64,000 bases of DNA from Atribacteria bacterium SCGC AAA255-G05 (GTDB lineage: Bacteria > Atribacterota > Phoenicimicrobiia > Phoenicimicrobiales > Phoenicimicrobiaceae): assembly GCA_000405605.1 (NCBI GenBank), contig ASPA01000002.1:16998-80997 (forward strand), written 5' to 3'. Of the stretch, positions 31,381-47,402 are shown piece after piece. The notes under the pieces are model-generated. The model was not told the DNA's origin. It worked only from the letters and a program-made list of their open reading frames with translations, and did not search any database. How positions within the stretch are numbered: the stretch's first letter is position 1; every line of letters starts with the position of its first letter. Both the position numbers and the translations under genes were made by a program.

Positions 31381-31590
31381 TTAATATACACCAATTGCTT
31401 CTTCTAACTTCCGATACACTTTTTCAGTTTCCTCACTCATACAAAAAGTTCGAAAATCGTTCTGTCTGGCCGACCATTTATAGATAGATGAATATTAGCC
31501 CTTTAGCATTTCGCCGAAGGGCTTTTTTATTTTCATAAATTATTTTTCTTAAAAAGAAGGATTTTTAAATAGACTTGTAGTATAAAGAAA
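31381..31590. repeat. R1 repeat copy A. It has a minus-strand mini-ORF (31381..31440, MSEETEKVYRKLEEAIGVY), a plus-strand terminator (GCCCTT…AAGGGC + T6, ~31497-31528) and an A/T-rich promoter-like tail.
   Basis: A 150-200 bp block is shared with four other copies (see findings). Confidence 0.7.
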
Positions 31591-31681
31591 ACAGTATGTT
31601 AAAAAAATAGGTAATTATGTTTTTCGTCCAAGCATAATATCTATTTTTCTACAATCACCTAAAAAAAAGAATATCGTAATC

Positions 31682-32265
31682 TGTATGAAGGTAACAGAAG
31701 AGATCTTTTCTTTTCACCATAAAAGAAAAGGAGCCGAAGAGGTAAGATACCACAAACATCCAAACTTTCAGGCAAAAGGACCGTTACCGGACAGAACTCT
31801 GGAGAGCTTTATACCAAAAAGCACCGAAGGGGCAATTCCTGATCTTTAGGAAAACTTATACAAATTTTACTAAAAAGAAATATTTCAATTTTTTGGGAAG
31901 AATCTTTCAGGTAAAAGGACAGAGCAAGAATAGCAATATAACTATTTTTACTCTGTCCTTTTTTATTTTTACGATGAACAGTCTATGCAAATACTTAAAA
32001 GTTGATAAAGGTAAACTATTCCGAAAGAATAGGGCGCAAAGTTATGGATCAAAATATTGTTTATTCTCAGACAATATTATGACCTCCAGACTGCTGGGTT
32101 TTTTGTGTGAGTGAATAGAAAGTAAAACTTAGGGAGGTATTGGATTATAAAAAATTAAGAAACATGTATTTAATATAATAAACCAGGGAAAAATAAATAA
32201 AAGGAGGTGATATCTTTTCTTTTGTTGCAATAATCTAAAATTGCATTTAAATATTATTTTAAAAA
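31682..32265 (+). ncRNA. R2 conserved leader copy A, upstream of the lipoprotein operon. It contains an internal rho-independent terminator at ~31914-31970.
   Basis: About 400 nt are ~85-90% identical to 36182..36560 and 43822..44200. The element has the hairpin 'cttttcttttcaccataaaagaaaag' and the terminator 'aaaggacagag…ctctgtccttttttattttt'. Confidence 0.5.
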
Positions 32266-32748
32266 ATGGAGGAAATTGTAGTGAAAAAAGTAAATTATTT
32301 AGTTTTCGCAGGATTACTACTTTGTATTCTTTTTTTGTTGACTGGTTGCACCGCACCTTCAATTGACTTAACTCCCGAGGAAGAGATAAATGCTCTAATT
32401 GATAAATTTGGCGCTGGCTTTGTAGAAGAGGATGTTAATAAAGTGCTCTCCTGCTGTCATTTTCCTTTCTTGATAGACCATTATAACTGGGAGAATGCTT
32501 ATCTATATACCTTAAGTTCTTATCAATATAAATTGGAGAATATGTTTGCCAATAATGATTGTTATATTGATGAATTTATCAATCGAGATATAACTTTTTC
32601 CAGCAATTTAGAAGCCGTAGTGGAAGCGACTGAACATGTTGAATATGAACTTGATCCCATAATAAAATATGATAAGGTCCGCTTAATTTGTATCAAGGAA
32701 GGTGGAAGTTGGAAAATATCCGAATATATATTTCTTGAGGGAGAATAA
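32266..32748 (+). CDS. Lipoprotein (NTF2/SnoaL-like fold suspected).
   Basis: Lipobox 'LLTGC'. Ribosome-binding site 'aaaaaATGGAGG'. 160 aa. Confidence 0.55.
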   Translation: MEEIVVKKVNYLVFAGLLLCILFLLTGCTAPSIDLTPEEEINALIDKFGAGFVEEDVNKVLSCCHFPFLIDHYNWENAYLYTLSSYQYKLENMFANNDCYIDEFINRDITFSSNLEAVVEATEHVEYELDPIIKYDKVRLICIKEGGSWKISEYIFLEGE

Positions 32749-32871
32749 TCCTAATTCTTAGCCGTATTAGTCAAATATTTAGATTTAGTTCAAATCACGA
32801 ACCAGTTTATAAAAATATCAAACTTATTAAACTATTTAAAAATTAAAAAATTTAAAAGGAGTGATTAGAAA

Positions 32872-33390
32872 ATGATGAAAGCAAAAAGAACATGGATAGT
32901 ATTATTTATTATTGCATTAACTTTAATAGTAATTTTAGCTGGGTGTAGCGGAGTACCTAAAATAGCCCAGTTAGGTATAGTTGCCGATCCAAACCCAGTA
33001 CCTTGTTCCAGTGAAGACGGGAAATGGTATTATATGATGAATATTAGCGAAAGCAATGGGGTAGGGGTTACCATAGCCAGCTTAACTTTCACTAATTACA
33101 ACCAAGAAAATGAGTTAGCAGATACAACAATTCTTGATGCAGAAGAATTTTTTGAATGGTTTGAAACAGATTATATTCCCGCTTTTTCCACAATCCAGAA
33201 TGGAATTGAGCATTCAGGTACATCCGTATATTCTATTGTAAGAGTCGCAGGAATAGATGATAACGATAATCCGGTTGAAGCAACAATTAGATGTAAATGG
33301 CAAGTAGAAATGCACCTTGCGCGGAAAACAATTTTGCACCTCCTAGAAAGAAAAAAATGGCTTAATCCTCCTCTTCTTTTTGGATTCTAA
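32872..33390 (+). CDS. Lipoprotein of the 'DPNPVPCSSEDG' paralog family, with its C-terminus disrupted by an IS21 insertion after codon ~140.
   Basis: Lipobox 'LAGCSG'. It is a paralog of 44385..44825 and 45033..45500. The native C-terminus '…IR|IDYLPE*' resumes at 35765..35788. Confidence 0.6.
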   Translation: MMKAKRTWIVLFIIALTLIVILAGCSGVPKIAQLGIVADPNPVPCSSEDGKWYYMMNISESNGVGVTIASLTFTNYNQENELADTTILDAEEFFEWFETDYIPAFSTIQNGIEHSGTSVYSIVRVAGIDDNDNPVEATIRCKWQVEMHLARKTILHLLERKKWLNPPLLFGF

Positions 33391-45500: not shown

Positions 45501-45620
45501 TTTTACACAATTAAATAATGGCAGGGAACGGTTCTTTATTATTTTTAATATCTACCATAGAAGAATTTTTAAATATTTTTAAAGAGTGAAATTTGATTCA
45601 AATAAAAGGAGGGATAAAAT

Positions 45621-46421
45621 TTGAAAAGATATAATTTCTTTATTTTATTACTCGTATATGTTCTTCTTTTGATTCTTTTATCAGGTTGTTCCGGAAGTGA
45701 ATATATTCCAGTGCCACCGCAGGGGCAGATAACTCCTGGTCATATGGCAGTGATTTGGTATGATTGGCCCCAGCCCCCAGGCAGTGGTTTCTATAATTTT
45801 GATGTTCTTTTGACTATTGATGTAGATCCTGGTATGCAAAGCCCCTATTTCTGGGCACACCAATTCCATTTCAAGAATGAAGAAGTGGGTTATATAGGAT
45901 TACAAACCAATGGGGTTATATATGGTGAGTGGGTAGGAAAAATGGCCATATTTTCCATGTGGGATGCCTTAGAAGTAGAACCAGGCCCTGGGGTATCATC
46001 TGAATGGTTTACTTGGGAGGGTTATGGTTGGGAGTGTAAGAAAAAATATAATTGGGTAGAAGGACATACGTATTGTCTTAGGGTAGAGGCATGTGGTGTT
46101 GATGAGCAAGATAATGAGTGGTGGGGAGCTTGGATTATAGACACATCTACTAGTGAAGAAATGTTTCTTGGAAAAATAAAAGTTCCTGCCTCCTGGCAAC
46201 GGATGGATGATTATTCCGCAGTTTGGGTAGAGTATTACGGACAAGTGAATGATTGTGATTCTATTACTTACGCAAAAGCCCGCTTTGAGCAGCCTACTGC
46301 TGATGATGACAATTTCTCGCCTCAGGAGTTTACTTCTGTAATAGGAACAACCTGTACTAATGCCCAGATCATCCTTTTAGAAAATAATGGAGTAACTTTT
46401 GAAACTGGAGGCTCTCTCTAG
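45621..46421 (+). CDS. Lipoprotein, hypothetical (Trp-rich).
   Basis: Lipobox 'LSGCSG' and ribosome-binding site AAGGAGG. Confidence 0.6.
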   Translation: MKRYNFFILLLVYVLLLILLSGCSGSEYIPVPPQGQITPGHMAVIWYDWPQPPGSGFYNFDVLLTIDVDPGMQSPYFWAHQFHFKNEEVGYIGLQTNGVIYGEWVGKMAIFSMWDALEVEPGPGVSSEWFTWEGYGWECKKKYNWVEGHTYCLRVEACGVDEQDNEWWGAWIIDTSTSEEMFLGKIKVPASWQRMDDYSAVWVEYYGQVNDCDSITYAKARFEQPTADDDNFSPQEFTSVIGTTCTNAQIILLENNGVTFETGGSL

Positions 46422-46469
46422 AAATTTAGAAGATATAAAGATTGAATTTTTTAAAAGGAGTAAATTGAA

Positions 46470-47189
46470 ATGAAACGATTGCTCTTCATCGTTGTAATAA
46501 TCGCTATATGTGTAAGTATCAATGCCAATGTCTTAGCGAAAGTAAAGTTTGGCAACTGGGACAGGTGGGACGAGGAATTACCTTCCTGGAATAATGAAGG
46601 CTGGGATTTAGAAGAACATTGCAGACTTACCTTTGTAGGTTTTCCTTTCATTAGGAGAACACTTATTTGGCTCCCAGTAGAAGAAGGTAAAGTACGTGCA
46701 GTATCTGGAACAGAATCGATTGATAATACATTTTTTTTACTAACTCATTTATCTTTCATAAAAGATAAAAAATCCCAGGCATCGATTATTCTTTTCTCTC
46801 CAGCAACAGCAGGTAAGAATGTTGAAGGTGTTAAATGCAATAACTCTGTGCTTAATAGTGCAAAATTTGCGATAGTGGCTTTTCCACCAGATAAAAAAGA
46901 AATAGTCTTGAGAGTATATGAGAATGAAAATGGATTATTCCGTTTATTAGAAGAATGGGGCGTTGCTTTTCAAAATGAAACAATCATAATTCCCGAAAAA
47001 ACGGTTAAATTTTCACAGAAATATGAAGAGTTTGTCAGTCAATCTCAACAATTAAATAATCAAAATATTATAGTTTCTTCATCTTCGATTATATTAATAG
47101 TTAGAGATAATAAGAAAAAGGAATTTAATCTTGGGGTATCTTTGGAAATTTTAGATGGAAAAAAGATAATAACACCTATTTTCTATTAA
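46470..47189 (+). CDS. Secreted hypothetical protein.
   Basis: Signal peptide 'IAICVSINANVLA' and ribosome-binding site AAGGAG. Confidence 0.55.
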   Translation: MKRLLFIVVIIAICVSINANVLAKVKFGNWDRWDEELPSWNNEGWDLEEHCRLTFVGFPFIRRTLIWLPVEEGKVRAVSGTESIDNTFFLLTHLSFIKDKKSQASIILFSPATAGKNVEGVKCNNSVLNSAKFAIVAFPPDKKEIVLRVYENENGLFRLLEEWGVAFQNETIIIPEKTVKFSQKYEEFVSQSQQLNNQNIIVSSSSIILIVRDNKKKEFNLGVSLEILDGKKIITPIFY

Positions 47190-47305
47190 AAGTCCATTTG
47201 TTTAGCTTTTAAAAAGTTAGGAAATGCCTTATCAGGTTTTGTGATGTGTGCTATGAATATACCCGTCATCTCTAGATGTTATTTTGTTATATTCTTTTAT
47301 AGTAG

Positions 47306-47402
47306 TTATGCACATATTATTTCTTCTAACTTATGATATACTTTTTCAGTTTCATCACTCATACAAAAAGTTCGAAAATCGTTCTGTCTGGCCGACCATT
47401 TA
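47306..47402. repeat. R1 repeat copy D, truncated. It has a minus-strand mini-ORF (47306..47362, MSDETEKVYHKLEEIICA) and no terminator half.
   Basis: Homologous to the 5' half of R1 copies A, B and C. Confidence 0.6.

Follow-up and report, generated by a model that had tools for sequence, protein, structure and literature searches.

Paired glycine and c-di-GMP-I riboswitches, proposed to act as serial attenuators, in repeated leaders of surface-protein operons from an Atribacteria genome

A tandem arrangement of a glycine riboswitch and a riboswitch of class I for cyclic di-guanosine monophosphate (c-di-GMP) has been described by Sherlock et al. (2022, RNA Biol, PMC9481103), whose Table 2 enters it as 'Glycine / c-di-GMP-I, AND, 6', the number being that study's own count. 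Typical dual glycine aptamers with an expression platform are followed there by a c-di-GMP-I aptamer, and a CsgG-type lipoprotein is mentioned among the regulated genes. The AND behaviour was a prediction, none of the six examples having been tested, and the rationale offered for the glycine input was the demand for glycine-rich curlin. Here we describe leaders of this kind in 64,000 nucleotides (nt) of contig ASPA01000002.1 from Atribacteria bacterium SCGC AAA255-G05 (the whole stretch analysed, referred to below as the window, with position 1 as its first letter). The arrangement is already known, and the window leaders are added members of a rare double switch. What they add is a measure of how large the family is within a single lineage, a regulon of adhesin type, full and truncated versions side by side, and junctions between a dispersed repeat, R1, and the ends of tRNA genes. 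In the library that was searched, no paper links Atribacteria with riboswitches.

Riboswitches in the leaders of three lipoprotein operons

A repeat search of the window returned three-copy families that tile 31370–32063, 35931–36760 and 43535–44401. Together with a three-way alignment it confirms what an initial annotation, made from the letters alone, had proposed: three copies of a non-coding module, each 5′ of a lipoprotein operon. The copies are collinear and 0.7–0.9 kb long. We read these modules as the 5′ untranslated leaders of surface-protein operons that work as serial RNA attenuators, a glycine riboswitch coming first and a c-di-GMP riboswitch second, and we put the probability of this reading at roughly 0.8. 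It is built on RNA family membership, the overlap of terminator and aptamer, the decay seen in copies 2 and 3, gene content, and distribution.

Rfam was run over the whole window at gathering thresholds (32 bits for the glycine family RF00504, 35 bits for the c-di-GMP-I family RF01051). Six glycine aptamers were found, scoring 43–62 bits and arranged as three tandem pairs (Table 1), the members of each pair being 3 nt apart (31793/31797, 36295/36299, 43933/43937). Every pair is followed by a long hairpin and a run of U, and the single terminator of each pair overlaps helix P1 of aptamer 2: the Rfam alignment places the 3′ strand of that helix within the terminator's 5′ arm, AAAAGGACAGAG, and ACAGAG is common to the terminators and P1. 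A strand shared in this way has the classical design of a transcriptional switch activated by glycine (an ON switch), so that glycine binding should prevent termination. Terminator and aptamer helices are conserved over 38 distinct leaders, with some compensatory changes in the alignment of the glycine regions. The 54-codon 'open reading frames' (ORFs) at 31685–31849, 36187–36351 and 43825–43989 are aptamer 1 itself. Equivalent 54-residue genes have been called on public metagenome contigs, among them L001 (1662–1826), L004 (3201–3365) and L005 (4864–5028) of the related loci, which we designate by L numbers; as protein predictions these calls are spurious.

The second riboswitch is complete in copy 1 only. 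Its RF01051 match spans model positions 1–87 and exceeds the gathering score, and a terminator scan places a terminator-like site at 32085–32098. Glycine riboswitch and c-di-GMP-I aptamer follow each other in this order on one strand and within one 5′ untranslated region (UTR), with no gene between them, in copy 1 (31685–32104, the next gene beginning at 32281) and in 18 of 20 related loci. The R2 part of the module, the section 3′ of the R1 repeat, matches known RNA families (RF00504 with six aptamers, and RF01051), an outcome that the initial annotation had itself named as speaking against its proposal and that tells against novelty.

In copies 2 and 3, according to the alignment, 18 nt have been deleted, the 3′ half has diverged and the U-tract is gone; the 5′ GAAA-loop hairpin and the junction are kept. 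The folds of both are no more stable than shuffled sequence (z scores in Table 1). A new variant of the c-di-GMP aptamer was considered for these two copies and rejected, there being no partner strands for P3 or P1 and no fold that differs from the shuffles. The same decayed allele is found in L015 and L059, before other lipoprotein genes; it is therefore a propagated derivative and not a sequencing error. At some loci the first switch has decayed as well: the alignment shows large deletions inside the glycine aptamers of L018, L030, L036 and L044.

In the mechanism that we propose, transcription would start at a conserved promoter-like motif just 3′ of a terminator hairpin, and a canonical two-aptamer glycine riboswitch would be the first structure to form in the nascent RNA. 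Glycine binding would block the strong intrinsic terminator that shares the 3′ strand of aptamer 2 P1, and the c-di-GMP-I aptamer would follow ∼35 nt further downstream. Because that aptamer is complete in copy 1 and carries its U-tract, genes 32281 and 32872 should need both glycine and c-di-GMP, as in an AND gate – a logic that we adopt from the prediction of Sherlock et al. In copies 2 and 3 one common deletion allele would have removed the 3′ strands of the aptamer together with the U-tract, so that the operons at 36746 and 44385–47189 have most likely escaped the c-di-GMP requirement and would be under glycine control only; this is the most economical reading of the two copies. It is from sequence that we infer the ligand responses, the ON/ON logic, the function of the promoter and any role of R1.

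Two conserved stretches flank the riboswitches. The promoter-like motif, AAAAAGAAGGATTTTT-N8-10-GT(A/C)GTAT, lies 3′ of hairpin 2 (the terminator hairpin of Table 1) at 31551–31587, 36112–36148, 37650–37690 and 43563–43600 and in ∼20 related loci. In L004 it also stands 5′ of a HEAT-repeat gene that has no riboswitch. Its conservation suggests that it may be a lineage-specific promoter, or a regulator site, of a wider set of genes. The other stretch, GCGTGAGTGAATAGAAAATAAAACT(T/C)AGGGAGGTATT, is found 3′ of the c-di-GMP aptamer in the window (32123–32260) and in L032, L034, L038 and L056. It holds a Shine-Dalgarno-like GGGAGG and a possible upstream ORF of 12 codons, and might belong to the c-di-GMP expression platform.

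Conservation along the module was quantified from the alignment. Among the three copies, pairwise identity is 81–84% in the promoter region (after hairpin 2), 88–92% in glycine aptamer 1, 89–95% in aptamer 2 with its terminator, and 92–95% over the next 77 nt, which comprise the linker and the 5′ half of the c-di-GMP aptamer. In the final ∼200 nt ahead of the start codon, copy 1 has only 67–69% identity with either of the other two, whereas copies 2 and 3 match at 92% between themselves. No homology links the genes that come first behind the leaders (32281, 36746 and 44385). The leader had been said to be better conserved than the coding sequence, and this is so (84–95% in the leader against 69–77% nucleotide identity among the paralogous genes 32872, 44385 and 45033), although the amino acid identity of those genes, given as 40–50%, was measured at 52–64%. 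We attribute the difference to the leader acting as RNA. Selection on the leader as RNA, also proposed at the outset, agrees with the riboswitch sequence kept in dozens of loci and does not cover copies 2 and 3 in their second half, which holds the decayed c-di-GMP aptamer. Part of the similarity may stem from recombination or copying and not from purifying selection alone, given the link between R1 and strain-level breakpoints described below.

Distribution of the leader and the genes behind it

The leader was searched for in genomes and metagenomes with a degenerate pattern that reached from the last part of glycine aptamer 2 into the first part of the c-di-GMP aptamer. Among GTDB species genomes there were seven matches, one of them a true tandem, in Candidatus Atribacteria bacterium 4572_76 (L013); the other six were discarded as glycine riboswitches with a chance match to the pattern downstream. 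At L013 rpoD and tRNA-Asn come first, then the terminator hairpin and the promoter-like motif; the glycine tandem, a terminator and the c-di-GMP-I aptamer follow, and last comes a lipoprotein with Listeria-Bacteroides repeats. On the strength of this one locus, the host of the window would itself probably be an Atribacteria-like organism. A slightly stricter pattern recovered 47 contigs from the metagenome collection and, with loci fetched earlier, 43 distinct c-di-GMP regions. Rfam placed glycine aptamers above threshold on all 20 related contigs examined and an aptamer of the c-di-GMP-I clan above threshold on 18 of them. When 38 glycine and 28 c-di-GMP regions were aligned, conservation proved very high, with the terminator kept and some compensatory pairs. 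The leader is 83–92% identical at dozens of other loci, where it precedes unrelated genes. Judged by these sequences, it is a lineage-wide family of at least 40 distinct loci in an Atribacteria-like lineage.

For three of the 18 contigs the best-fitting model of the second aptamer is RF03167 (c-di-GMP-I-GGC), which scores above its gathering threshold and better than RF01051 in L018 (6636–6733), L022 (332–429) and L030 (1083–1165). With second aptamers of this type present, the leaders may not all share one ligand specificity.

A signal peptide or lipobox is present in nearly all of the 46 distinct first downstream ORFs. Pfam domains among them are Lcl_C (8 proteins), He_PIG Ig (6), Flg_new or Flg_new_2 (5–6), CsgG or LpoB (4), PEGA (3) and, in fewer proteins, PKD, Big_9, LRR and others. 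Going by their predicted products, the leaders almost always stand before genes for secreted proteins or lipoproteins whose domains are of adhesin type (Lcl_C, Ig/PKD, Listeria-Bacteroides repeat, CsgG-like). In the window, lipoboxes are found in 32281, 32872, 36746, 44385, 45033 and 45621, as had been claimed; 46470, also counted as a lipoprotein, has a signal peptide but no clear lipobox. An orthologue of 32281 lies behind an intact tandem leader in L032. Genes 32872, 44385 and 45033 are indeed paralogues, by the identities given above. Their family (145 residues; 264 relatives, none of which carries a name) belongs to no family found in Pfam. Its AlphaFold model (pLDDT 90.5) is a seven-stranded Ig-like sandwich, for which a fold search returned generic Ig-like sandwiches only (ApaG, CARDB, Kir C-domain; TM ∼0.45–0.5).

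Table 1. Features of the island, in window positions. Aptamer scores are Rfam bit scores; z compares folding energy with shuffled sequence.
Feature	Position	Strand	Details
Degenerate tRNA-Asn-like 3′ fragment, GTTCTGAA..GGGGGAGCCAGACAAT	31301–31335	+	Left edge of module 1
Hairpin 1 and T-run (GACAGAC..GTTCTGCC TTTTT)	31342–31374	+	Read from sequence
R1 core, copy a	31381–31476	+	Antisense small ORF 31440 to 31381, MSEETEKVYRKLEEAIGVY then stop; right end ..TCTGTCTGGCCGACCA resembles tRNA-Pro 3′ end
Hairpin 2 terminator (AGCCCTTT..GAAGGGCT and U-run)	31497–31528	+	Homologous to terminator after real tRNA-Pro/tRNA-Asn genes in related loci
Promoter-like motif AAAAAGAAGGATTTTT-N9-TTGTAGTATAAAG	31551–31587	+	Conserved in ∼20 related loci at same position after hairpin 2
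Glycine aptamer 1, copy 1	31685–31793	+	RF00504, 56.4 bits
Glycine aptamer 2, copy 1	31797–31924	+	RF00504, 45.5 bits
Glycine-riboswitch terminator, copy 1	31913–31968	+	-25.8 kcal/mol, z = -6.1; also a palindrome in the repeat search
Complete c-di-GMP-I aptamer and U6 tract, copy 1	32000–32104 (aptamer match 32000–32098)	+	RF01051, 46.2 bits
155-residue lipoprotein gene	32281–32748	+	GTG start, lipobox LLTGC, no Pfam family
Ig-like lipoprotein paralogue A, 5′ part	32872–33291	+	Continues at 35771–35791 once IS21 is removed
IS21-family element no. 1	33292–35764	-	IstA 34099–35649, IstB 33362–34102 (Pfam)
R1 core, copy b	35933–36037	+	Antisense small ORF 36001 to 35933
Tandem glycine aptamers, copy 2	36187–36295 and 36299–36427	+	RF00504, 61.8 and 46.5 bits
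Glycine-riboswitch terminator, copy 2, weaker	36414–36470	+	-16.5 kcal/mol, z = -2.0
c-di-GMP-I remnant, copy 2	36499–36560	+	GAAA-loop hairpin and junction only; no Rfam match at E<=1; fold z = -0.2
Lcl_C (DUF1566) lipoprotein gene	36746–37333	+	PF07603, 37.5 bits
R1 core, copy c	37503–37598	+	Followed by hairpin 2 (37619–37645), promoter-like motif and IS481-like element
IS481-like element	37837–41206	+	HTH_32 37837–38409, rve_3 40850–41206
TPR-repeat membrane protein gene	41559–43073	+	141-nt tandem repeats; not behind a riboswitch leader
Module 3 upstream part, no R1	43467–43578	+	Degenerate tRNA-Asn 3′ half 43467–43498, hairpin 2 43507–43533, promoter-like motif 43563–43578
Tandem glycine aptamers, copy 3	43825–43933 and 43937–44066	+	RF00504, 62.1 and 43 bits
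Glycine-riboswitch terminator, copy 3	44055–44110	+	-25.9 kcal/mol, z = -5.0
Decayed c-di-GMP-I aptamer, copy 3	44140–44234	+	RF01051, 23.8 bits, below gathering score 35; fold z = -0.1
Four-gene operon	44385–47189	+	Paralogue B 44385–44825, paralogue C 45033–45500, DUF3472 lipoprotein 45621–46421, secreted protein 46470–47189
R1 core, copy d	47306–47398	+	Similarity stops right after ..GGCCGACCA(TTTA); right edge of island in this assembly

The island also carries insertion sequences (IS), and the two IS21 elements and one IS481 element of the initial annotation are borne out by Pfam domains, the IS481-like element being split by IS21 no. 2 (IstA 38716–40113, IstB 40100–40843). Membership of the IS21 family follows from the rve and Mu-transpos_C_2 domains of IstA and the IstB_IS21 ATPase, and for no. 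1 inverted ends and a target duplication were read from the sequence: the ends are TGTAAATGG../..CCATTTCCA, and the 6-bp duplication ATTAGA stands at 33286–33291 and 35765–35770. Excising this element with one copy of ATTAGA restores the 3′ end of 32872 (..NPVEATIRIDYLPE and stop), as judged against the paralogues. The TPR gene contains a 141-nt tandem repeat in six copies (42123–43127); related contigs encode versions of 504 or 551 residues, and the repeat copy number therefore varies between strains. To the left of module 1 a start-less frame (..NIDIYNNYTYRVYIDDVLWGTSDWNGDITLDNVPLGYHNIHVQS.., 30904–31162) resembles the 3′ remnant of another surface-protein gene, and the island probably begins near 30760. 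Outside the island, between genes 26308 and 27517, a group II intron D1-D4 match was found at 27063–27141 (36.6 bits; gathering score 35).

The R1 repeat and alternative readings of the cassettes

R1 is a dispersed repeat that is separate from the riboswitch and joined to tRNA 3′ ends, and it is only partly explained. The repeat search defines it as a 96-nt family with four copies (31385, 35946, 37507 and 47307), in agreement with the initial annotation, which had noted further partial copies at 37503 and 47306; this shorter repeat separates the cassettes. A 36-nt core has four matches in the window and none in 100 shuffles. The window copies are 85–91% identical in pairs, and many more exist on related contigs. 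R1 always has the orientation of the operons and sits 5′ of the leader, after the last gene, or both. An Rfam search of 31000–47600 in E-value mode gave nothing credible over R1, the matches being to SurA sRNA and snoRNAs at E 0.1–0.9, far below gathering scores. As a structured RNA or attC-like hairpin R1 was rejected, since RNAalifold finds no conserved secondary structure in 25 copies (0 kcal/mol on both strands). The possibility of a tRNA or tmRNA gene was dismissed too: ARAGORN finds neither, and no intact tRNA, in the window, and acceptor-stem complementarity is absent.

What R1 has of tRNA is confined to its right end, where the last 7–9 nt of a tRNA are followed by that tRNA's own trailer. 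The tRNA-Pro-like junction in the window reads ..TCTGTCTGGCCGACCA / TTTATAGATAGATGAATATTAGCCC.. (the slash marking the junction), and the real tRNA-Pro(GGG) of L024 reads ..CTCGCCCCGACCA / TTTATAGATAAGTATTAGCCC.. and has the same hairpin, the same promoter-like motif and the same leader behind it; GGCCGACCA / TTTATAGATA.. in the window compares with ..CCCCGACCA / TTTATAGATA.. in L024. Other R1 copies are fused to GGGGAGC and the tRNA-Asn trailer, or to a ..TCCACCA end. R1 is in fact bracketed by direct repeats of tRNA 3′ ends, GGGGAGCCA.. on the left and GGCCGACCA with the tRNA-Pro trailer on the right, with tRNA-Asn and ..TCCACCA types elsewhere. Module 1 has a degenerate tRNA-Asn 3′ half to the left of its R1, and module 3, which lacks R1, has one immediately 5′ of the hairpin; the first of these (31301–31335) matches the 3′ end and trailer, GGTTCGAATCCTACCCGGGGAGCCAGACAAT, of the real tRNA-Asn in L013. 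Intact tRNA-Asn or tRNA-Pro genes stand immediately 5′ of the leaders in L013, L029, L033, L054 and L024.

The hairpins around R1 are of two kinds. Hairpin 1 is probably the terminator of the upstream (remnant) gene, and its class recurs 5′ of R1 at 37464–37497 and in related loci. Equivalents of hairpin 2 were found by terminator scan at 36058–36083, 37619–37645 and 43507–43533. In L040 the GUGCG.. 5′ end of a group II intron directly follows the hairpin-2 terminator, as in class C introns.

Contigs from close strains show no difference as far as the R1 at 47306–47398, beyond which they continue in three different ways, one of them switching inside R1. This suggests recombination at R1, possibly by site-specific insertion at tRNA 3′ ends. 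The cassettes might accordingly be mobile units, each made of tRNA trailer and terminator, promoter, leader, surface genes and R1, that recombine site-specifically at tRNA 3′ ends. R1 would then mark the end of the element or lie close to its att site, and the recombinase would act in trans. Such mobility would add to the riboswitch explanation and not replace it. We think it unlikely, though among the likelier of the alternatives: the fusion of R1 to the last nucleotides and authentic trailer of tRNA-Pro, its fusion elsewhere to tRNA-Asn or ..TCCACCA ends, the intact tRNA genes directly 5′ of five leaders, the constant orientation of R1 on one or both sides of operons, tandem R1 units joined at GGGGAGCCA in L015 and the three strain variants diverging at or in R1 are all as it would have them. 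It has to contend with the lack of an intact tRNA in the window and of a conserved attC-type hairpin in R1, and with the Pfam result that no integrase (tyrosine or serine recombinase) is present among the window ORFs scanned, which were not every ORF; the same breakpoints could also arise by homologous recombination among dispersed repeats or as artefacts of assembly, and the right junction in the window adjoins an obviously artefactual inverted duplication.

That duplication lies at 48018–48263, in a fragmented gene for an SBF/ACR3-type transporter (47485–48841) which adjoins the right junction of the island (47402/47403). It comprises perfect inverted repeats of 51–53 nt, and 47925–48068 is repeated perfectly and directly at 48118–48261 (144 nt). 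The region looks like a chimera of assembly or amplification, and the right junction may not be genuine.

A doubtful but comparably placed proposal concerns the conservation of R1: that it encodes a real acidic peptide of 18–22 residues on the minus strand (consensus MSDETEKVYHKLEEVIGIC). The 'mini-ORF' of the initial annotation does exist, as a minus-strand ORF of 18–22 codons ending exactly at 31381, 35933, 37503 and 47306, though R1, which holds it, stands apart from the riboswitch. Of 25 distinct copies 19 keep the start and stop positions, most substitutions are conservative (E/D, K/R, V/I/L/M), neither strand has a conserved RNA structure, and variability at third codon positions is about twice that at the others (0.19 versus 0.085 and 0.07; permutation p ∼0.01). 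A plus-strand frame has the same third positions, however, so this periodicity cannot tell the strand; the ATG is lost in six of the 25 copies, no promoter is recognisable, no Shine-Dalgarno sequence is present where neighbouring genes have strong ones, and the peptide is too short for homology searches. R1 might, then, additionally encode a conserved 19-residue peptide. Somewhat less likely again than mobility as such is the fuller picture in which riboswitch-controlled surface-protein operons are exchangeable cassettes, bounded by R1 (∼150 nt) at tRNA-Pro, tRNA-Asn or ..TCCACCA 3′ ends and moved by a recombinase in trans. If it is true, cassette shuffling would diversify the cell surface at strain level, each cassette bringing its own glycine/c-di-GMP logic.

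That the leaders resemble each other through plain recent segmental duplication, or gene conversion via flanking R1, with the riboswitch matches as relics, is improbable. Copies 2 and 3 do share a decayed allele, and their 92% identity reaches the start codon even though the genes behind them have nothing in common, so that leader was copied as a block, and strain contigs do switch partners inside or at R1. Yet 40 or more distinct loci, drawn from many samples and one GTDB genome, keep the leader at 83–92% identity, identity within the genome is not above that between genomes, the six glycine aptamers remain intact, as do their terminators, and decay is limited to the second aptamer. Least probable of all is that the glycine-like aptamers are a specificity variant sensing some other ligand: the surface-protein context is atypical of glycine riboswitches and RF03166 (glycine-GGAnGA) is the best clan member in E-value mode, but its scores (81.2, 75.4 and 65 bits) are far under its gathering score of 110, each aptamer alone passes RF00504, the alignments show canonical GGAGAG, CACCGAAGGGGCAA and CUCAGG..AAAAGGAC cores, and for Sherlock et al. 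(PMC9481103) the dual glycine aptamers of this arrangement are typical ones.

Serial attenuation by glycine and c-di-GMP, the reading that we prefer, has points of its own against it. Clan competition in E-value mode puts the tandem under RF03166, at the sub-threshold 65–81 bits just given, and P3 of the copy 1 c-di-GMP aptamer contains one non-canonical pair. In most relatives the U-tract lies directly 3′ of the P1 3′ strand, with only weak hairpins and no strong separate terminator predicted, and it is therefore uncertain whether the second switch is ON or OFF; in the minimum-energy fold of copy 1, P3 is extended to the U-tract and looks like a terminator. Finally, the regulated proteins are not rich in glycine: their median content of 6.8% equals the window background, so the rationale of glycine demand finds no support here, and glycine-rich products were dropped as the reason for the glycine input.

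Significance and comparison with described systems

With this family the glycine/c-di-GMP-I tandem passes from six untested examples (PMC9481103) to the standard leader of many adhesin-type lipoprotein operons in an uncultured Atribacteria-like lineage. The family supplies many natural sequence variants. It also places a natural glycine-only derivative (copies 2 and 3) beside the full version (copy 1) in one genome: a ready comparison for the AND-gate prediction. It further allows one to ask why glycine gates the expression of surface proteins, the idea of glycine demand being unsupported by protein composition. Separately, the junctions of R1 with tRNA 3′ ends offer a clue to the way in which these operons are disseminated.

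The leaders share with the tandem of Sherlock et al. the order of the parts – dual glycine aptamers with their own platform, then c-di-GMP-I, in one 5′ UTR – and genes of surface or biofilm type, including CsgG-like lipoproteins in the relatives L019, L024, L038 and L046. They differ in number, six examples there against three in 16 kb of this window and no fewer than 40 distinct loci across one lineage; in their genes, which are mostly small adhesin-type lipoproteins, neither curli nor glycine-rich; and in that two of the three window copies are natural derivatives without the c-di-GMP stage.

Comparison with the component riboswitches gives a similar picture. Like glycine riboswitches of the gcvT type (RF00504), the leaders have two aptamers with canonical cores and a terminator that competes with P1 of aptamer 2; unlike them, they precede operons for secreted proteins and lipoproteins rather than glycine cleavage or transport, and a second riboswitch follows. 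Copy 1 and most relatives have the GAAA-tetraloop hairpin, ..GCAAAG.. junction and P3 helix of c-di-GMP-I (GEMM-I, RF01051) and score above the gathering threshold. Here, however, the U-tract abuts the P1 3′ strand, copies 2 and 3 are truncated, and three relatives fit RF03167 better.

The cassettes also recall tRNA-end islands and integron-like arrays, with which they have in common direct repeats of tRNA 3′ ends at the cassette boundaries, a single orientation and a content that varies between strains. In contrast to those systems no integrase was found among the scanned ORFs, the window has no intact tRNA and R1 no attC-type hairpin, and each cassette has a promoter and a riboswitch of its own.

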